Of a stretch of 64,000 bases of DNA, positions 8,261-39,574 are shown piece by piece (position 1 is the first letter of the stretch; each line of letters starts with the position of its first letter). A model generated the notes under the pieces. It was given only the letters and a program-made list of their open reading frames with translations. It did no database searches and was not told where the DNA came from. Source of the stretch: a virus (lineage: Duplodnaviria; Heunggongvirae; Uroviricota; Caudoviricetes); IMG/VR virus record IMGVR_UViG_3300025015_000009, positions 160,001 to 224,000 of that record. One strand, given 5' to 3'. Position numbers and translations under genes: made by a program.

Positions 8261-9452
8261 ACTGGACCTTAAGCAACACCACCTCGTCGGCTATTCTTCC
8301 TGTTAGCTTCGTTTCTATCGCTTTAATATTTTTCATGAATGTTCGGAGTTGAACCTTCCCTGCTTTTTGTAACTCACGTAGCGTTTCGTCTGGCTTCCGC
8401 AGAGTTTTGCTCACACTCTTCATTGGGTCGTACCCTGTAATAGTTGTTCCTTTAACCCCGAGTACACCGAATGCAGAGTCCGCTACGTACACCCCAAGTT
8501 TCCGTGTTTTTGTGTTATAACACCACAACTCAACAGAGCCAATTATAGACACAGGGCTGATACTTGCAATCTTTAACGCTGGAAACTCTTTCATGTACTT
8601 CATTTTAGAAACCAACTTTTCTTTGTTGACTGGTTTCTTAACTCTTGCTTTCTTTAAGGTTTTCTTTAGGTTACCGTACGTATCTAAATCAGCTTGAATG
8701 CTATCTAAATATGCAACAATCCGTTTAATGTCTTTTTTAGACAAGAAACTATATGACTCAGTTAATTGGTCGCAGGACCCACTGGCGGCCTCAACTAGCT
8801 CGTTCTTATATCCAGCTATTGTAGACGACACTTTTCCTAGAAACGCATAAGGAACGGTGCTCGCTGTTAGGTGCTCGTAGACGTTCAACTCTGGTACTTT
8901 ATTGTGCGTTACTAAATCAATCTGATGATCTATTTCTCCGATAACAATCGAGACCTTTTCACGCATTCGATCTTGAATTGTAGGTTTATACCCAGTTGTT
9001 ACTTTTGTTTCTGTCACTGGTTCTTTCTGAGACGCACTGTTTATTACCCGCGCTACCGCGTTTAGAATATACTGTTTATGCGGTTCTTTAAGAGGCATAC
9101 CAACCGACTGTGCTTTTAGTAAACTGCACACTGTAATCGGAGTATCCGAGTCTGGCGCCGTTTTGTATACTGCGATGTCAGCAGCGGTCACATCTGAGTG
9201 ATCTTCTAACCAAGCAATTACGTATTTTTTAAGATCTTTTACTGAAAAGAAATAGTTGTAGTAATTAAGACTTTTCATTAAAAGCCGATCAAACTCTTTG
9301 TTGTCTAGTGCAAGTGCTCGTTCTGTGTCCCAGTTAGGCTCAGATCCGAGGAACTTCTCGTCCTCAGAGATCGAAGACCGCAACGATTGAGGTTTTTTCT
9401 TAGTAACAGGTTTAATTGATATCTTTTTTGGTTTATCTGACTTTGCACTCAT
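8259..9452 (-). CDS. Hypothetical protein, T4-superfamily type, function unknown
   Basis: 397-aa basic ORF with an AAGGA RBS. The C-terminal LWCYNTKTRKLG.Y...VKGTTI...KTLRKP looks like a conserved domain. Confidence 0.75.
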   Translation of the reverse strand: MSAKSDKPKKISIKPVTKKKPQSLRSSISEDEKFLGSEPNWDTERALALDNKEFDRLLMKSLNYYNYFFSVKDLKKYVIAWLEDHSDVTAADIAVYKTAPDSDTPITVCSLLKAQSVGMPLKEPHKQYILNAVARVINSASQKEPVTETKVTTGYKPTIQDRMREKVSIVIGEIDHQIDLVTHNKVPELNVYEHLTASTVPYAFLGKVSSTIAGYKNELVEAASGSCDQLTESYSFLSKKDIKRIVAYLDSIQADLDTYGNLKKTLKKARVKKPVNKEKLVSKMKYMKEFPALKIASISPVSIIGSVELWCYNTKTRKLGVYVADSAFGVLGVKGTTITGYDPMKSVSKTLRKPDETLRELQKAGKVQLRTFMKNIKAIETKLTGRIADEVVLLKVQ

Positions 9453-9466
9453 TTAATGTCCTTTGT

Positions 9467-9727
9467 TTATTTTGAGCATAATACAGCGAAGAAGGTAATT
9501 GACTCGAATTCTTCGATTCTAGTGTTAATCAATGATAGTAACTCTATTGTCTGCCGTGTACTAACTTTTCTTTCTCTGCGAGCAATCACTTCTGCTTTAC
9601 TTAACTCGGTAACCAATTTGTCAATTGCATCGAGCATTCGAATTCCATCTCTGCGTGGTAGCAACTTAACTACAACTCTATACAGTTGTTCTCTTTTAAC
9701 CGAGTAATCGAGCGATGATGTTATCAT
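9467..9727 (-). CDS. Hypothetical helical protein
   Basis: 86-aa ORF co-oriented with, and directly upstream of, 8259..9452. A sigma70-like promoter precedes it. Confidence 0.6.
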   Translation of the reverse strand: MITSSLDYSVKREQLYRVVVKLLPRRDGIRMLDAIDKLVTELSKAEVIARRERKVSTRQTIELLSLINTRIEEFESITFFAVLCSK

Positions 9728-9735
9728 AATGTACT

Positions 9736-9764
9736 ATATTAACACCAAACATCAAACAAGTCAA
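9736..9764 (-). promoter_or_regulatory. Sigma70-like (early/middle) promoter
   Basis: Minus strand reads TTGACT-17 nt-TAATAT with a TGn extension. Confidence 0.55.
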
Positions 9765-9776
9765 CCAGGCTGCTAA

Positions 9777-9784
9777 TATAAATA
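9777..9784 (+). promoter_or_regulatory. T4 consensus late promoter TATAAATA
   Basis: Exact T4 late consensus, upstream of an AGGAG RBS and the TTG start at 9807. Confidence 0.75.
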
Positions 9785-9806
9785 CATAACACCCAGGAGA
9801 CGTATT

Positions 9807-10925
9807 TTGGCTAGATTAAGCATGTGGCGAGAAAAGAAGACCTTTGATTACAAATTCATCGACAAGAGAATCGCTGAGATGTATCAAGTCGGTGGGGTGG
9901 GAATACATATTCATAAATATCTGGGGCCGTCTAACACTGGGCCCAGCAGCGATGCAACGCAGCCGCAAATAATCAATCCTACAGAACGCAGCATTCAAGA
10001 TCTTCTCTTTATGGAAAACAGAGACAGGGTATACGACACTACTATATATAACCTTCGTGGCGTATACACAAAGGCAGACCAGGACTTTGATCTTAGCCAA
10101 TTTGGGTTATTTTTGTCATCTGGTACAATGTTTGTTACTTTTCCTCTCAACGACATGGTCCGTATATTGGGTCGGTCTATTATGGCAGGTGATGTACTCG
10201 AGTTACAAAATCTTCAAGATGATTACGCAGATATATCAGACGTCCCTGCGTCGCTGAAGCGATACTACGTTGCATCTGATTGTTCATGGCCAGCAGAGGG
10301 GTTTTCGCCTATCTGGTACCCGCACCTGTGGCGAGTTAAATTAAGCCCATTGGTAGACTCTCAAGAATACAAGGGCTTGTTAGATAGTATCAAGGCAGGT
10401 AATGTTGGTACTCCTGTTAGTTCAGTGATTAGCCAACTCGATACATATTTAAACATTAACGAGGCGATTGTAGAACAAGCCAACAACGACGTACCAATGA
10501 GTGGGTATGACAATACAAAACTCTACACTACCTTTAAGGGTGCCGACATGCCCGGAGAGGGAATAGAACTAACAAACGAGGATGTTATAACTCCTAGGAA
10601 AGGTGATTGGGACGGGTACTTAACTGGGGATGGTTTAGCCCCCAACGGATATCCAGTTACGTCAGGCATTACTTTTCCAATTAACCCTGGTTTCGGAGAT
10701 TACCATTTAAGGTTAGACTACTTGCCTAATAGGCTATTTCGATATGACGGAGTCAGGTGGAATAAAGTAGAAGATGTTCAACGCACCAGCCTTAACCGTG
10801 GTCCAGAGAACAAGTCGCTTAAGAGTTCGTTTGTTAACAACCAGCAAACATTCGTCGATAACGACGGGACAGTGCAACCCGAGTTGCAAGCATTGTCTGA
10901 GATACTAAAAGCTCGACCGAGCTAA
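9807..10925 (+). CDS. Head closure / neck protein (T4 gp14-like)
   Basis: IQDLLFMENRDR.YD, FDLSQFGLF, GDVLEL. It lies directly upstream of the gp15-like gene and has a TTG start with RBS. Confidence 0.7.
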   Translation: MARLSMWREKKTFDYKFIDKRIAEMYQVGGVGIHIHKYLGPSNTGPSSDATQPQIINPTERSIQDLLFMENRDRVYDTTIYNLRGVYTKADQDFDLSQFGLFLSSGTMFVTFPLNDMVRILGRSIMAGDVLELQNLQDDYADISDVPASLKRYYVASDCSWPAEGFSPIWYPHLWRVKLSPLVDSQEYKGLLDSIKAGNVGTPVSSVISQLDTYLNINEAIVEQANNDVPMSGYDNTKLYTTFKGADMPGEGIELTNEDVITPRKGDWDGYLTGDGLAPNGYPVTSGITFPINPGFGDYHLRLDYLPNRLFRYDGVRWNKVEDVQRTSLNRGPENKSLKSSFVNNQQTFVDNDGTVQPELQALSEILKARPS

Positions 10926-24636: not shown

Positions 24637-24644
24637 TATTTATA
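24637..24644 (-). promoter_or_regulatory. T4 consensus late promoter TATAAATA
   Basis: TATTTATA on the + strand, 5 nt from the ATG at 24631. Confidence 0.7.
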
Positions 24645-30162: not shown

Positions 30163-31020
30163 ATGACTCAACAATCACTAACTAGCACACCAAATCCGTT
30201 GTCGATGTACTTTCGACAACCAAAACTATACATCAAACTTCCCAGTAAAGGTAATTTCTATCCTCCGACTGCACTGGAAAAGACTGAAAGCGGTGATTAC
30301 GCAGTATATGCAATGACTGCAATCGACGAGCTTATGTTTAAAACACCAGATGCTCTGATGAACGGACAGTCAACTGTGTCTGTTATTAAAAGTTGTGTTC
30401 CTGCAATTAAAGACCCATGGAAAATGCCAACTGTTGATTTAGATGCTATATTACTTGCTATCCGGGTTGCTACATACGGCGAAGGGATGGAGATTAGGCA
30501 ATCGTGTCCAAAATGTAATCACTTAAACGAGTTTAACCTAAATTTAATCGGGTATCTGGATAAACTAAATGCATTCGAGTTTAATTCGGTTATACAACAT
30601 GACCCACTTACAATTAACATTCGTCCTTATACATACAAGGAAATGACAGACACACAGATTAGAACGTTAGAAGAACAGAAGATCCTGACGATTGTCAATG
30701 ACAAAGAAATGTCTGACGACGAAAAAGTGCAATTGTTCGGACAAAGTCTCGACAAACTAACTGTGTTCACCGTTGATGTAATTGCAAAATGCATCTCTTC
30801 GATTGTTACCCCAGATACTACAGTAACTGATCCAGCTATGATCACCGAGTTTATTAAGAACTCACCTAGCGAGGTGTTCAACAAAATTAGTAAGCATGTT
30901 AATACAATGCAGGAGTTATTGTCATTAAAAGCAACTGACTTACAATGTGAAGAATGCAAACATGTATGGTCATCTGAGATTTCTATGGATCAAACAAATT
31001 TTTTCGGCAAAGGATCTTAG
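30163..31020 (+). CDS. Baseplate hub / tail assembly protein, T4 gp26-like, copy 1
   Basis: NPL..YFRQP.LYI.LPS.G, MTA.DE...KTPDALMNG, D.DAIL.AIR.A.YG, two CxxC pairs, ending NFF. Confidence 0.8.
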   Translation: MTQQSLTSTPNPLSMYFRQPKLYIKLPSKGNFYPPTALEKTESGDYAVYAMTAIDELMFKTPDALMNGQSTVSVIKSCVPAIKDPWKMPTVDLDAILLAIRVATYGEGMEIRQSCPKCNHLNEFNLNLIGYLDKLNAFEFNSVIQHDPLTINIRPYTYKEMTDTQIRTLEEQKILTIVNDKEMSDDEKVQLFGQSLDKLTVFTVDVIAKCISSIVTPDTTVTDPAMITEFIKNSPSEVFNKISKHVNTMQELLSLKATDLQCEECKHVWSSEISMDQTNFFGKGS

Positions 31021-31242: not shown

Positions 31243-32088
31243 ATGAGCGAACAGAACCCTTTATCAAAACATTTTCGACAACCAGTATTACACATTAAAC
31301 TACCAAGCAATGGCAAATACTGGCCGACAGGATCTATAAACTTACCAGTTACTGGTGAATTACCTATATACCCGTTATCAGCCAAAGATGAAATTATGCT
31401 AAAATCACCTGACGCTTTGTTAAACGGAGCAGGTGTCGTTAGTGCTATTCAATCATGCGTTCCTAATATATCAGATGCTTGGTCAATGCCATCTATTGAT
31501 ACCGATGCTATATTAATCGCAATGCGAATTGCGAGTTTCGGAAATAGTTTACCGGTTGACGCTACTTGTTTGCACTGCGACACCAGACAATCATTTGCCA
31601 TTAACTTAAACACAGTTGCTGGTTCGATACCAGCAGCAACTTCAACGTTCGACGAGGTGTTTACAGTCGACGGGTTACGGATTAAGTTTAAACCACTTAC
31701 TTACTTTAAAACAAATACTGCGAGTTTAATTGCATTTGAGCAAGGGAAAATGGCATCTATTGCAGCTGACGAATCATTACCATTAGACGATCGCAAGAAG
31801 CATTATTCGCATCATTTAAATACTCTGATAGATCTAAATATCCAAACATTTGCAGATAGCACCGAGTACATCTTAACAGAAGACGGAATCAGAGTAACAC
31901 AACCAGCGTTCTTACTTGAGTTCTACCAATCTATCCCTAGAAAACTAGTATCTGAGATCAGAGAGATATACGAAACGCTACTTAATAATAGCAGTTTGCA
32001 ACCAGTTACAGTTACATGTGAACATGAAGATTGTGGTAAAGACTTTAAGATTAGATTAACGTTTGATTATTCAAATTTTTTCGATTGA
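31243..32088 (+). CDS. Baseplate hub / tail assembly protein, T4 gp26-like, copy 2
   Basis: Clear paralogue of 30163..31020 (NPLSKHFRQP, KSPDALLNG, ending NFF). Confidence 0.8.
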   Translation: MSEQNPLSKHFRQPVLHIKLPSNGKYWPTGSINLPVTGELPIYPLSAKDEIMLKSPDALLNGAGVVSAIQSCVPNISDAWSMPSIDTDAILIAMRIASFGNSLPVDATCLHCDTRQSFAINLNTVAGSIPAATSTFDEVFTVDGLRIKFKPLTYFKTNTASLIAFEQGKMASIAADESLPLDDRKKHYSHHLNTLIDLNIQTFADSTEYILTEDGIRVTQPAFLLEFYQSIPRKLVSEIREIYETLLNNSSLQPVTVTCEHEDCGKDFKIRLTFDYSNFFD

Positions 32089-32312
32089 GGCTTTCCTCAT
32101 TGGATCACGATGCTATTCATAAGTACATCGAAAGTCTAGAAAATGAAGCGAAAGCCTTAAAAACAGAACTGCTTAATATGTGTTGGTTTATGCGTGGAGG
32201 AATAACGTATGACGAAGCAATGTTATTATCAAATGAAGACAGAAAAATCATAAACGATATAACAAAAGCAAATATAGAAACAGTTAAGAAAACAGGACTC
32301 CCCTTGTTATAA
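32079..32312 (+). CDS. -1-frame extension ORF (gp51-like), copy 2
   Basis: FRLRLSSLDHDAIHKYIESLENEAKALKTELLNMCWFMRGGITYDEA...GLPLL. The ORF track starts it at TTG 32085, which has no RBS. Confidence 0.8.
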   Translation, partial: FRLRLSSLDHDAIHKYIESLENEAKALKTELLNMCWFMRGGITYDEAMLLSNEDRKIINDITKANIETVKKTGLPLL

Positions 32313-32334: not shown

Positions 32335-32354
32335 AATCAAATCAAATCAAATCA
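32335..32354. repeat. (AATCA)4 microsatellite
   Basis: Four perfect tandem pentamers. Confidence 0.9.
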
Positions 32355-32419
32355 TACAGACGTGGGTATCTATTAAGACATACGATAAGTTATACTTAAC
32401 TACAATACATATCGCATTA

Positions 32420-32940
32420 GAAGATGTGTTTCACACATCTGTGTTTATCGCTTTCGCTCTAACACATTTTTCTTCTCTCTACTGTATATAATTGTTTGAT
32501 CTACGATAATACACATTACGCTTTAAGAGATATATTTCCGAAAGATTCAGTCATACTTTGCCCAGACACAGGGCAAAGTCATGTGACAAAAAGGGGGTTT
32601 TTCCGATGAGTTCCTTTGGGCCATAGTTGTAGCAAGAATATGCGTAATCACACACGGAGGCGGTTAACCTGTACCCCCTTTATCTCTCCTTTGTTCTAGT
32701 TTGCTGGCGCGTAGCCGATTGGCATTTCGAATTTAACGGTACTAATTTGCAACCCCTACAACAAGGTTGGATTAGTCAGTGGTTGTATCTTTTTCAACAG
32801 AGCCACAATCATTTAACACTCAATAGTGTCTATTTCTTTGGCACTCAAGATCTGTCGGCTACTTTTTCAAGCAAACTCAATGAGGATCGAGGAATCTCGA
32901 TCAAACAGGGCCTTAATTAACGGGTCTGAGGGTGTATATT
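32420..32940 (-). ncRNA. Candidate large structured non-coding RNA (strand tentative)
   Basis: No credible ORF. It contains many perfect hairpins and nested long-range helices (32698-32705/32870-32877, 32711-32718/32855-32862, 32590-32598/32673-32681). Confidence 0.6.
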
Positions 32941-32984
32941 CTAGTTTAGCTCAGTGCATCGCACTGTCTATGTCAATGGGTGAT

Positions 32985-33013
32985 AAAGAAACCTACTGCC
33001 CGAAAGCAGTAGG
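32985..33013 (-). terminator. Intrinsic terminator after the small basic protein gene
   Basis: Minus strand reads CCTACTGC-TTTCGG-GCAGTAGG-TTTCTTT. Confidence 0.7.
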
Positions 33014-33023
33014 CGATGGCATA

Positions 33024-33221
33024 TTACTTAACAGACATTTGGTTCTTCTTCTCTTGGATCTCCGCGCGGCGAAGCTTGGATAGTTTACCCAAGTCTCCTA
33101 GTGCGGCGCGGGCGCGGGCCGAAGATGCTTTAATACCTTGTGTTTCGAATTTTTCGTGCTCAGCCATATAAACACGGATTGCTTCAAGAATTGCTTGATG
33201 AGTTGATGTTACGTCGTTCAT
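33024..33221 (-). CDS. Small basic DNA-binding protein, histone H1-like (Hc1-type N-terminal domain)
   Basis: E.EKF...G.KAS.ARAR.AL..L.KL.K.RR.EIQ..K pattern, with a strong AAGGAG RBS. Confidence 0.7.
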   Translation of the reverse strand: MNDVTSTHQAILEAIRVYMAEHEKFETQGIKASSARARAALGDLGKLSKLRRAEIQEKKNQMSVK

Positions 33222-36141: not shown

Positions 36142-37752
36142 TCAAACAGCTACCCAGATAAAAACCTTATTACCGCAGTCCCATATTCTATCCCATTTGT
36201 TATTTTGCATATTCTGCCATTCAGACAAGTGCGCATCGAACGTACTAAGTTGTTTTTTTAATTTGTGTTTTTGGAATTTTTGTCTAGAATAAAACGTACA
36301 ATAGTCGTGAGTATAAAAGTAATTCGGATTACTCTGATGTGAAAACACGAACCCTAGTTTTTGGTACATATTTCCGCGAGTATTTGATATGTCACTATAC
36401 GACACAATAGAGGCTGGCGCGTATTCAACAACAAACATACTGAATAGTTTACTCGCGCCGCCGACAACTGTATGGTTGATTTTGTTTGCAAAACGAATCA
36501 ATTCCCATTCGGCAGTTTTTCCAAAGCGGCACTTTGCAAATGTCATAACCGCTAATAACTCATTATTTAAAAACAAACCATAACAAGCCGTTGCAGCCGA
36601 AGTACACCCGTGCAAGTGATTTTTATTTAAAAATATATCGGCTTCGCTTTTGGTTATGCGTTTTCCTGTGCATTTTCTAGCAAATATGCGAGTAGCACAG
36701 TTAAATACACTGGTGAGCATCGACTTAACAACATCGGTTCTGTTGGTCCAATGGTGTTCCCATATGTGTATTAGTTGAATATTTTGTTTAGCACATTCTG
36801 TGCTTTTTTGTGAATGATAAAATTTAGTTCGACCATTTAACTCAGAATGCCAGTATGATCCGTTACACTCGATTGCTAACTTAATGTCTGGGAAAAACAA
36901 ATCTAGTTGTTTTGTTTTTAAAATAGACCTGTCGTTAGTAATACACAGGCCGTTGTACAATGTTTGAATAAATTGATGTACGTCTATTTCTAAGTTACTC
37001 TGTGACTTCTTAGTCAGTAGTATGCCTGCATCTTTTATTGCACTATACACCGGGTTAGTAGATACGTTGTATTTTTTTGCAATTTCGAGCACAGTCATTG
37101 TTTTACACAGCTCGTCCAATTGAGTTGAATCAGCTAACACCTGTTTAAATTCAGTGGAGTAATGTGCTTGTTTTTGATTATCGACTCCGAATTGTTGTTG
37201 GTTGGTCGCTCGTATCTTAGATAAGATACCCTCCGATAAAAACGGGTTACTAACACCGTATTTGGTTATAAAATAAGCCGCAACTTTGTCTTTAACTTCT
37301 TTGCTCTGAGCAGCACTCTCAACCCCGTACTTCCTGATGCTTGTTTCTTTAACGCGAGCAGTGTGGTCGACGGTTTTGCTGTAATGGTCAACACCAAACC
37401 GCCGCAAACTTGTTTGTTTTACTTTTGCTGCCCAGTCGGTTGTCTGAGAATGCCATTCAACTCCAATTGTAGATAAATTGTGTTTCTTTTTTTCAACAAC
37501 TGTTGCCCTCGCTGTACACCGCTTAGAACAATATTTGCGATATTCCCTACGGTCAGAATGCCAAGCTAAGTTTTCCCCACATGTGCAAGTGGGTATGGCA
37601 GCGAGGGCTGTTGTATAATGGTATAATAGTTGCCGGGGGTTGTTAATTCCGAGCAAGACGTATGGCTGTATATCTAACCATAATACAGATTTTTGTAAAT
37701 CTACTATGGTTAGATATTTCTTTGCTACTAATTCACTACTCGCTGTCACCAT
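36142..37752 (-). CDS. Hef-like homing endonuclease (third copy)
   Basis: C.CG..YCS..C, (K/R)(Y/F)GV repeats, QLDLFFP..LAIECNGSYWH, IWEHHW, VVGGASKLF, RIWDCG. The start is uncertain (ORF open from 37797; ATG at 37752 overlaps the sigma 3' end). Confidence 0.82.
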   Translation of the reverse strand: MVTASSELVAKKYLTIVDLQKSVLWLDIQPYVLLGINNPRQLLYHYTTALAAIPTCTCGENLAWHSDRREYRKYCSKRCTARATVVEKKKHNLSTIGVEWHSQTTDWAAKVKQTSLRRFGVDHYSKTVDHTARVKETSIRKYGVESAAQSKEVKDKVAAYFITKYGVSNPFLSEGILSKIRATNQQQFGVDNQKQAHYSTEFKQVLADSTQLDELCKTMTVLEIAKKYNVSTNPVYSAIKDAGILLTKKSQSNLEIDVHQFIQTLYNGLCITNDRSILKTKQLDLFFPDIKLAIECNGSYWHSELNGRTKFYHSQKSTECAKQNIQLIHIWEHHWTNRTDVVKSMLTSVFNCATRIFARKCTGKRITKSEADIFLNKNHLHGCTSAATACYGLFLNNELLAVMTFAKCRFGKTAEWELIRFANKINHTVVGGASKLFSMFVVEYAPASIVSYSDISNTRGNMYQKLGFVFSHQSNPNYFYTHDYCTFYSRQKFQKHKLKKQLSTFDAHLSEWQNMQNNKWDRIWDCGNKVFIWVAV

Positions 37753-39574
37753 CACTGTTGCTACAGCTATTTTGTCTTGTGTATGAGGGGTTAACATTGT
37801 TCATCTCCAATATGTCATCTCTTATATTTTGATTCTTCTTTTCTATATTTAGCACACGAGTAAAAGAATTTGTTATAACAGCCGTATAATATGCAAATGG
37901 GTTCTGAGACTTACTTTCGTCAAATTGCAATCCAATTTGAGCTAGTTGTAGTAACGCCTGGGATCTCATTTCGTCGTTGTAAGTGTTACCGGTAATGTAT
38001 ACCATCCCGTTTCTTTTAGCAACAAAGCAGCCGAATTCTGTTTCAGGACACCAAACCTGACCTTTGTATAGAATCGTCGGTTCGTTTAGACGGGTTGTTC
38101 CGTCTGCGCGCGTTTGATTAGTTCCTTTTCCACCGTAAAAGTTAATATCAGAGCAGCGAACGGTTGAATCGGCAGTCGGTGAAATAATAACAGTGTGATG
38201 TGAGCTGAGTTTGTCAAGTGGTGTGTGTTTGAACGATGCAACTGCTTTTGTTTTAACCCCAGTTACAGCACAGAGTGCTTGGAACATATTGATTACATCT
38301 ATGTTTTTGTGTGTAAGTTTTTGAGTACCGTTACACATAACATTAATGAGCAGCATTCGTTGAGAGGTAGTCAGCGTGGATATAAACTCCATTGTTAGAT
38401 TCTTCCCAGGGAACAGTTCGACTAGTTTGCTTGACGATGCCTCTGATAATAAAAAGTCAGTTAGTTTGCCTGATCCGGTAACAATTGACTCTGAGAATGA
38501 ATAGCTAAGTTCGGTTAAACATGCGCGGACCCTGTCTGTTAGATCAGGACGAATTCGAAGAGAAACAAGTTTGTTCGAACTAGCAGATATGGTACATTGC
38601 CCAAACATTACCATCCATCCTGCTAATGTGACAAAAGGTGCATTGTGTATCTCAGTGCTATTTCCTTTTTCTGCTATTCCCATTGTTACTATTCGATCAG
38701 AATCTGTTAAGTCGTCAACTTTAATTAATCCGGATTGTGTTACAAATTTGTGTTCTGGAGTAACTAATGCATCAATTCCACGCCCGCGTAAGTGAAACAT
38801 AGAACCGTCAAACTCGCCCCGGTAAATTGATTTAATACTGGACCAGGTCAGCATACCGTTTGTGTACGATAGTATAGTGTCTTGCTCGGTTATCTGATCA
38901 ACCGAAAGCCACCCTCGTTGAGTTAACGCAGTAGTTCTAGGATCAACACAGTACCCACGCCAGTTAGACCTAGTTGCATATCGTTCGCATAACTTCATAT
39001 ACATAGTTGCAAGGGTATTTGTTACTTGCCCGTGTTCTTTACTAAACTGTCCGTCAGCACTGTTGCCTGTCCAATGGCTCCGTCCGATACAAACAGGGTT
39101 GTTGTTTTCGTCTAGCTTGTAATGACAAAACGGCGGGAAGTTAACTTTTGTGTATTTTGCTGGTTTTGTGATCTCAATAATGTCGTCTATCGAATCGTAC
39201 TCGGTTACCGGCTCAAATAGTTCGTTGGAATTGAATTTCTTACCTTTACTAACACTCTCTGCTAGTGGAATATGTTCCCACGTCATCACTCTAAACACTA
39301 AATCTTCGGTTTTGATGTCATCTACAGACACTGCAACGTCGTCGGCTTTAACCTTAACCCCACCGGCAGCGTGTTGTTCAACCGCATCTTTTGTTAGCCT
39401 CTCGGCTTTGTTCTGTTTTGCTTGGTCGATATGAGACACCAAATCGATAGTGCTACTCAAGATTATGTCGTAGCTCGATGAGCTATTATCAAAGCTACAA
39501 TAAGATGATTTGCTCTTATGGATTTCCTTAAGTATGTCTTTGTTGTTTAAGTAGTTGACTGTTTTCCTTGCCAT
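37736..39574 (-). CDS. gp55: Late-transcription sigma factor (T4 gp55-like), intein-containing
   Basis: NYLNNKD, L..M...L.ERY..RSNWRGY|TYNDEM...ALLQL....LQFD..KS.NPFAYYT..I.NSF...L..EKK. It lies upstream of gp47/gp46, as in T4. Confidence 0.88.
   Translation of the reverse strand: MARKTVNYLNNKDILKEIHKSKSSYCSFDNSSSSYDIILSSTIDLVSHIDQAKQNKAERLTKDAVEQHAAGGVKVKADDVAVSVDDIKTEDLVFRVMTWEHIPLAESVSKGKKFNSNELFEPVTEYDSIDDIIEITKPAKYTKVNFPPFCHYKLDENNNPVCIGRSHWTGNSADGQFSKEHGQVTNTLATMYMKLCERYATRSNWRGYCVDPRTTALTQRGWLSVDQITEQDTILSYTNGMLTWSSIKSIYRGEFDGSMFHLRGRGIDALVTPEHKFVTQSGLIKVDDLTDSDRIVTMGIAEKGNSTEIHNAPFVTLAGWMVMFGQCTISASSNKLVSLRIRPDLTDRVRACLTELSYSFSESIVTGSGKLTDFLLSEASSSKLVELFPGKNLTMEFISTLTTSQRMLLINVMCNGTQKLTHKNIDVINMFQALCAVTGVKTKAVASFKHTPLDKLSSHHTVIISPTADSTVRCSDINFYGGKGTNQTRADGTTRLNEPTILYKGQVWCPETEFGCFVAKRNGMVYITGNTYNDEMRSQALLQLAQIGLQFDESKSQNPFAYYTAVITNSFTRVLNIEKKNQNIRDDILEMNNVNPSYTRQNSCSNSDGDSE
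37985..38950 (-). mobile_element. Intein (322 aa) with degenerate LAGLIDADG-like endonuclease
   Basis: Starts CVDPRTTALTQRGW, block B VTPEHKF, ends VWCPETEFGCFVAKRNG..YITGN followed by Thr+1. Removing it restores the contiguous NWRGY-TYNDEM. Confidence 0.92.

Follow-up and report, generated by a model that had tools for sequence, protein, structure and literature searches.

Replication origins of the ColE1 type are laid out as a promoter, a long folded RNA without a terminator and, downstream on the sense strand, a repeat of a word found upstream in that RNA. The ColE1 record has same-strand G6 runs at 928-933 and 1175-1180, which we take to be the functional G-stretches; about 140 nt past the second run, at 1332-1342, the displaced strand carries a GAGCG-N-AGCGA word, presumably the primosome assembly site (pas). 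For the hybrid to persist, the G-stretch of the RNA must pair with the C-stretch of the template (PMC4412123). T4 origins are described as a promoter plus an unwinding element; there are several per genome, with an early promoter and an AT-rich region at oriF and oriG, and the cited passages do not describe the oriF and oriG transcripts as conserved folded RNAs (PMC4412123, PMC5778457). From plasmids come ARRPOF, GEBRO and PAGEV, structured motifs of 223-349 nt whose regions are either required for replication origins or predicted to be such origins (Weinberg et al. 2017, PMC5737381). Finally there is Polynucleobacter-1 (Rfam RF01718), a 141-nt motif with no assigned function, scored as probably cis-regulatory by Weinberg et al. 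2010 (PMC2864571), the only paper returned by a literature search on its name. For the clade of jumbo myophages that concerns us here, our search of the literature found no described replication origin.

The window we analysed is a stretch of 64,000 nt, positions 160001-224000 of a circular 318-kb phage genome, G000, which has a 146-nt terminal overlap. At about 32912-32422, on its minus strand, lies an element in which many helices, and at least two pseudoknots, covary. It is bipartite: the first ~380 nt are RNA-like, and an AT-rich spacer and DNA-type hairpins follow. By analogy with ColE1 and T4, we give an even chance to the reading that the element is a transcription-primed replication origin, its RNA forming an R-loop that acts as pre-primer. 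Even should that reading fail, the element represents a large RNA family without earlier description. Its parts and immediate surroundings, in the direction of the minus strand, are these:

33024-33221, minus strand: Hc1 histone-like gene (PF07432, E 4e-8); upstream context, outside the element.
32985-33014 (also placed at 32992-33014), minus strand: intrinsic terminator behind the Hc1 gene, insulating the element.
32943-32970, minus strand: weak candidate sigma70-type promoter, a 9/12 match, which is chance level.
32840-32912, minus strand: 5' module P1-P4 with a UGAAAAA loop; covariation in 92 sequences.
32779-32830, minus strand: P5 hairpin and P6 hairpin, the latter with the second UGAAAAA loop; covariation.
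32741-32776, minus strand: P7 hairpin, whose loop (32764-32756) pairs with 32632-32626 to form pseudoknot PK2; covariation.
32733-32737, minus strand: 5' half of pseudoknot PK3 (3' half 32667-32663); in the window, a compensated pair of its own.
32696-32732, minus strand: window-specific 37-nt insertion, complementary to both P4 strands; possible alternative fold.
32640-32678, minus strand: most conserved core, with P9 (32678-32673 paired with 32661-32656), the PK3 loop and P10; alignment and model.
32600-32610, minus strand: twin word 1, TCGGAAA at 32606-32600; identity comparison.
32552-32583, minus strand: P11, a long hairpin between the twin words; covariation and core alignment.
32535-32545, minus strand: twin word 2, with TCGGAAA at 32541-32535; the RNA is predicted to end here, judging from PA5oct ncRNA004.
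32464-32535, no strand assigned: AT-rich spacer, a candidate unwinding element; 74% AT, genome 58%.
32422-32466, minus strand: module D, of DNA type, a stem with a GAGCG-AA-AGCGA tip (32466-32440) followed by a GAA-triloop hairpin (32440-32422).
32085-32312, plus strand: convergent gene of 75 aa that follows the gp26/gp51-like hub gene; context, marking the syntenic site.

The gap that holds the element has the gp26/gp51-like hub gene and the small convergent gene on one side and the block of Hc1, gp46, gp47 and gp55 on the other. A preliminary description of the window had called it ORF-free and by far the largest gap. Counting ORFs of at least 70 aa it is indeed the largest (513 nt; the runner-up has 222 nt) and the seventh by size in the whole 318-kb genome, but short ORFs (57 and 85 aa) on the plus strand overlap it. 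The same description drew the region up to 33013, whereas the conserved element begins near 32912. Its terminator is present (32992-33014) but follows the upstream Hc1 gene, and its promoter-like element at 32943-32970 is at chance level (2 such sites present where 3.5 are expected). Larger ORF-poor gaps elsewhere in G000 (132371-133289, 133857-134676, 125743-126371 and 9389-10012) hold no copy of the element, and a tRNA/tmRNA scan of the window found none.

Several neighbours deserve a word in their own right. Two tandem baseplate-hub (phrog_150) paralogues lie on the plus strand at 30163-31020 and 31243-32088, where the cultured relatives examined have only one, and the AT-rich tail behind module D has a 5-nt unit four times in tandem (32337-32356). 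The gp55-like late sigma factor (37736-39574, minus strand, 612 aa) has PHROG matches spanning residues 4-209 and 531-605, and an insert of ~320 aa with Cys as its first residue and Asn as its last, which we take to resemble an intein; between gp55 and gp47 is a homing-endonuclease-like gene (36142-37797, minus strand; phrog_3339, E 3e-118). ATAAATA stands just 5' of structural genes at 24643, 26377, 30108, 30139, 39611 and 39639 and is likely a late promoter of the window phage's clade; none was found upstream of the element.

How firm is the fold? Across 92 sequences of the window's subfamily (effective number 69), the highest mutual information belongs to complementary pairs of P1-P11 and of module D. 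In the RNA part G-U pairs outnumber A-C pairs by 946 to 88 in 6387 cells, an excess that fixes its strand as minus. Together these bear out the claim of a large conserved structure on that strand. The 594-nt region also folds better than shuffled controls (minus strand z -3.75, with 0/100 shuffles as good; plus strand z -3.60); folding energy fails to separate RNA from DNA. In a core alignment of 40 sequences, which was fitted to the model and hence leans towards structure, 91.7% of cells pair and 21/25 pairs vary on both sides; slid controls give 48-58%. The core is compact and nearly invariant across members. PK3 is fully paired in 91/125 members with 9 pair types (12% when matched to other members' loop words), mostly with one mismatch in subfamily A; PK2 covaries as well, and a third crossing near P5 is weaker. 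The UGAAAAA loop of the 5' module is presumably T-loop-like.

Every hairpin arm of the preliminary description, and both copies of its TTGAAAAAG motif, were found where it had placed them; its long-range helices fared differently. The nested pair AGTTTGCT/AGCAAACT and GTAGCCGA/TCGGCTAC is above chance (0/5000 shuffles of the 37-nt insertion yield both) but is not family architecture: it relies on that window-specific insertion, would disrupt the conserved hairpin P4, and was not seen in six insertion-bearing relatives, where the longest single helix reaches 5-8 bp. Likewise AAAGGGGGT/ACCCCCTTT is a real pairing, 9 bp being reached in 31/3000 shuffles, but it would disrupt the covarying helix P9. 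These helices reflect a linker complementary to P9 and an insertion complementary to both P4 strands; being exclusive with the conserved helices, they could, on sequence grounds, form a lineage-specific off-switch. A search for close relatives of the window returned none with its exact core loop and five loci, of two types, with its P4.

Members of the family were first fetched through two flanking proteins, with the window's gap matched in 46/89 such loci. Pattern scans then added 120 viral loci (~500 estimated) and 119 metagenome loci (~540 estimated). Of 329 loci from uncultured phages, 290 match the core pattern; 246 of these are long enough and 125 are non-redundant, 33 in subfamily A and 92 in subfamily B, where the window belongs. 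Subfamily C came from a third pattern (120 loci, ~740 estimated; 85 non-redundant). The two pattern scans (~500 and ~740) put the estimated IMG/VR total at no fewer than 1,200 stored stretches. Aquatic and groundwater genomes or fragments have a single copy in 9/10 cases. The exception, G001, has two; the second, at 165700-166200, is diverged, with a 5' part that looks Polynucleobacter-1-like by eye and its own twin word. A GTDB scan returned 120 loci, of which 100 were scored and four were true, at least three of these on short MAG contigs. Among 88 members with enough flank the upstream gene is a nuclease in 67 (GIY-YIG 52, PD-(D/E)XK 15), and the closest ORF downstream runs opposite to the element in 67 and along with it in 12. 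In two loci (L083 and L087) a three-gene cassette sits between the small 75-aa-type gene and the usual site of the element.

What sets subfamilies A, B and C apart is the 5' module: sister subfamilies swap P1-P4 for others, RF01718 among them. Polynucleobacter-1 lies ~100 nt upstream of the core in 20/20 subfamily-C loci tested (69-121 bits), and also in L081, L082 and L117; it does not match the window (threshold 37 bits), which carries a different 5' module. RF01718 is a fragment of sister subfamily C, spanning the exchangeable 5' module alone. That the window matches no known class holds for its own Rfam scan (none at gathering, four chance matches at E up to 10), but part of the family was already covered by RF01718. 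Models for GOLLD, ROOL, OLE, HEARO, group I and II introns and RNase P found nothing in the window at E up to 10, nor at E up to 1 in 25 loci that are homologous or syntenic; RNAI was absent from the Rfam scan results, and there was no Rfam match to the plasmid-borne ARRPOF, GEBRO or PAGEV. A retron, DGR or other RT-linked RNA was considered and dropped, the reverse transcriptase domain PF00078 being absent from the circular 318-kb G000. Our literature search returned no description of the whole element; supplements 1, 2 and 4 of Fremin et al. 2023 (PMC10690425), which lay outside the search, may hold fragments.

Among cultured phages the hub gene has its relatives in the GAP32/121Q/RaK2/PA5oct jumbo myophages (94 records). 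The same site holds a gap of 0.75-1.5 kb in GAP32, XbC2, Ecwhy_1, Phosso and PA5oct, not in RaK2 or Atu_ph07; the GAP32 gap matches 72 phage records, and EndoVII, resolvase or RNase HI genes border the gap in isolates. Neither blastn of the window's gap or of locus L135 against cultured phages nor profile HMMs of the freshwater subfamilies found the isolate copies, though a covariance model did: built from uncultured members alone, it placed 11/12 enterobacterial cores as its top 11 matches (E 2e-5 to 0.2, rough values), the twelfth having E 2.6. With a second-round model the held-out copies score at E 1e-13 to 1e-9, and Atu_ph07 yields no convincing copy. Cultured jumbo phages (GAP32, RaK2, 121Q-like) carry 3-5 copies of the core per genome, all in one orientation. 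In GAP32 they are dispersed at 35, 99, 178, 262 and 341 kb and co-oriented in 5/5, as are those of RaK2 (3/3) and Ecwhy_1 (4/4), and clear -10 boxes stand 325-400 nt before the core in 11/12 isolate copies. The Sinorhizobium phage Phosso has a 1-kb gap between RNase HI and resolvase (L330, 6391-7404) that folds well (z -3.4); it is a candidate, element-like by eye and with module-D-like hairpins on the opposite strand, which both covariance models miss.

PA5oct offers a transcript. Paralogues of its syntenic gap lie at 12.9 and 246.2 kb, the latter coinciding with ncRNA004 (246116-246734), an RNA that makes up 0.08, 0.03 and 0.02% of phage reads from early to late (Lood et al. 2020, PMC7318152). 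The terminator list of that paper has no entry at the end of ncRNA004, but the list is keyed to coding genes. The RNA begins behind a TTGACA/TAAACT site and stops ~8 nt beyond word 2, ahead of an AT-rich part and GNA hairpins. A pairing descriptor finds exactly the two PA5oct sites and, in G000, the window's element, with none in 20 shuffled genomes; it was composed after PA5oct had been seen, both covariance models miss PA5oct, and its sensitivity is 64/125 members and 1/12 enterobacterial copies. A first descriptor was too insensitive (54/125 members and 4/12 enterobacterial copies). From this descriptor and by eye, ncRNA004 is probably a paralogue of the element.

The strangest part of the element is a pair of words. 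Two identical, lineage-specific words of 6-9 nt flank P11 and change together: positions 53 columns apart show identity covariation that ranks fifth among all column pairs, the strongest non-complementary signal. At least 6 nt are shared by a member's own pair in 120/122 members, compared with 36% of cross pairs and 11/122 reverse-complement controls, in windows picked after inspecting the data. Among distinct word classes 23/25 match, and 0/10,000 permutations reach the observed sum. In subfamily C, which was held out, 84/84 own pairs share at least 7 nt, compared with 19% of cross pairs. The words vary widely from lineage to lineage, and every enterobacterial copy retains them. G001 has two copies with two different words, each matched within its own copy. 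In GAP32 (5/5), Ecwhy_1 (4/4) and RaK2 (3/3) a core word is common to all copies of a genome and differs between genera, while the flanking triplets differ by copy, each matched in cis. Two RaK2 copies have 269 nt identical, which indicates that conversion homogenises copies; gene conversion can thus explain the sharing of words within a genome. No conserved complement of the words was found inside the element in 21 members examined, which leaves the opposite DNA strand as their only constant partner. Inspection by eye often places the two words in short hairpin loops. A one-base-bulge rule holds in 185/204, but a conserved dinucleotide dominates it, and as independent evidence it is weak.

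Past word 2 the character of the element changes. The AT excess of the spacer is modest across the family (average 0.67-0.70), and in module D the wobble count turns round, with G-U 27 and A-C 47 in 1353 cells. Module D is present in 103/125 members, and its GAGCG-type word, the kind also seen in ColE1, in 72/85 of subfamily C. Its last hairpin is GNA in 67/82 triloops, mostly closed by C-G, and GNRA in merely 4/19 tetraloops; GNA triloop hairpins are especially stable in DNA. A perfect 6-bp cGNAg hairpin occurs only at module D in the G001, G002 and G004 records, elsewhere too in G000 and G003, and such hairpins leave most copies unmarked in GAP32 (1/10 at a copy) and PA5oct (0/2). In subfamily C (e.g. 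L604, L605, L609) an extra hairpin just past word 2 has a GAA triloop that reads on the template strand, which means that both strands bear DNA-type hairpins. A U-tract follows hairpin D2 on the opposite strand in 30/83 and on the RNA strand in 3/83; D2 may double as a terminator for the opposite strand. The likeness to GOLLD and ROOL that had been suggested finds no support. Size class, phage association and many helices are shared, with no Rfam match, but the last ~50 nt look like ssDNA hairpins, an RNA-strand terminator is found in just those 3/83, and we know of no DNA-type tail or twin words in GOLLD or ROOL. Those are abundant RNAs; by contrast, the PA5oct homologue is rare (0.02-0.08% of phage reads).

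From this layout we infer an origin that would work as follows. Early in infection, host sigma70 RNA polymerase would make an RNA of ~380-620 nt, whose pseudoknotted core, with P11, would keep word 1 beside the site where word 2 has just been transcribed. Word 1 could then pair with the template strand of word 2, with one bulged base, seeding a persistent RNA-DNA hybrid into the AT-rich spacer. The 3' end of the RNA, left or trimmed just past word 2, would prime the leading strand, and the displaced strand would form the GNA hairpins, where helicase or primase might load. Pairing of word 1 with the template predicts identity covariation in cis, and the family shows it. The preliminary description had named a DNA role such as an origin as a case that would change its RNA interpretation; that is the role the evidence now favours. 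RNase H (PF00075) is absent from G000, and the host enzyme could serve. Strand-corrected GC skew in five genomes gives no consistent switch at the element (14 kb off in G000, none in G002, reversed or elsewhere in G003 and G004); it is higher downstream of 7/8 copies in two isolates, where gene strand confounds it.

The analogy with ColE1 is one of layout, not of homology. Both covariance models score the ColE1 record at background, and outside its origin, and in the model the ColE1 stretch does not take on the fold of module D (z +1.4). ColE1 repeats a G-run ~250 nt apart, whereas the element repeats a lineage-specific word of 6-9 nt ~55 nt apart, has several pseudoknots and up to five copies, sits on 300-kb lytic phages, and has no known antisense RNA or Rop. 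With T4 the likeness would lie in a T4-like phage with several origins per genome, an early promoter and an AT-rich region. A further idea, to which we give a rather small chance, is a programmable self-targeting RNA initiator, in which the core would drive strand invasion, and perhaps make its own primer end, at 7-9-nt guide-loop matches, letting the whole clade start replication from an RNA machine rather than an initiator protein.

Other explanations deserve weighing. The two identical loops of a trans-acting structured RNA might bind two copies of one phage protein, as scaffold or sponge, with module D as the terminator of the convergent operon. A word common to all copies within GAP32, Ecwhy_1 and RaK2, and genus-specific, is what a protein site would look like; the frequent placing of the words in hairpin loops and the opposite-strand U-tracts fit too. 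Yet matching in cis is copy-specific, gene conversion accounts for the shared words, the RNA strand is almost devoid of terminators, GNA hairpins also trail copies without a convergent operon, and the PA5oct paralogue is a rare RNA; we consider this reading unlikely. Less likely still is a ribozyme or RNA-guided DNA-processing element whose core would cleave or ligate RNA or DNA at both copies of the word, for self-processing or, with neighbouring nucleases, to start recombination-dependent replication. The compact, nearly invariant core would suit it, as would the upstream nuclease genes and the EndoVII, resolvase and RNase HI genes beside isolate gaps. Those nuclease genes, however, belong to the gp46/gp47 block regardless, none lies beside the window's element, dispersed copies have unrelated neighbours, Rfam ribozyme and intron models found no match, and an internal guide complementary to the words is absent from the 21 members examined.

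Very improbable, to our minds, is a selfish non-autonomous element moving as ssDNA or RNA. The 3-5 diverged copies per enterobacterial genome, the ssDNA-type hairpins and the interchangeable 5' modules would favour such an element, against which stand a copy at a shared syntenic position in phages as far apart as those of lakes and a Cronobacter phage, the single copy in most aquatic and groundwater genomes or fragments, the constant co-orientation, the lack of a reverse transcriptase in G000 and the scarcity of true loci among those scored in GTDB. We think just as poorly of the chances that the locus serves as a DNA signal for packaging, for the genome terminus or for genome organisation, or as a cis-regulatory leader, its fold being incidental. 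Its position between head/tail genes and gp46 and the cis-regulatory rating of RF01718 (PMC2864571) speak for this, but in 67/88 members the next ORF downstream is encoded by the other strand, which makes a leader role impossible there, and wobble-rich pseudoknots demand a single strand of one polarity.

It is unusual to see two loops covary by identity. A transcription-primed origin, which we continue to prefer, would be a candidate that can be mutated in cultured phages growing on laboratory strains, several members of the clade being candidates for therapy or biocontrol. If the origin model is true, the orphan Rfam motif Polynucleobacter-1 would be extended from 141 nt to an element of ~450 nt with a function.
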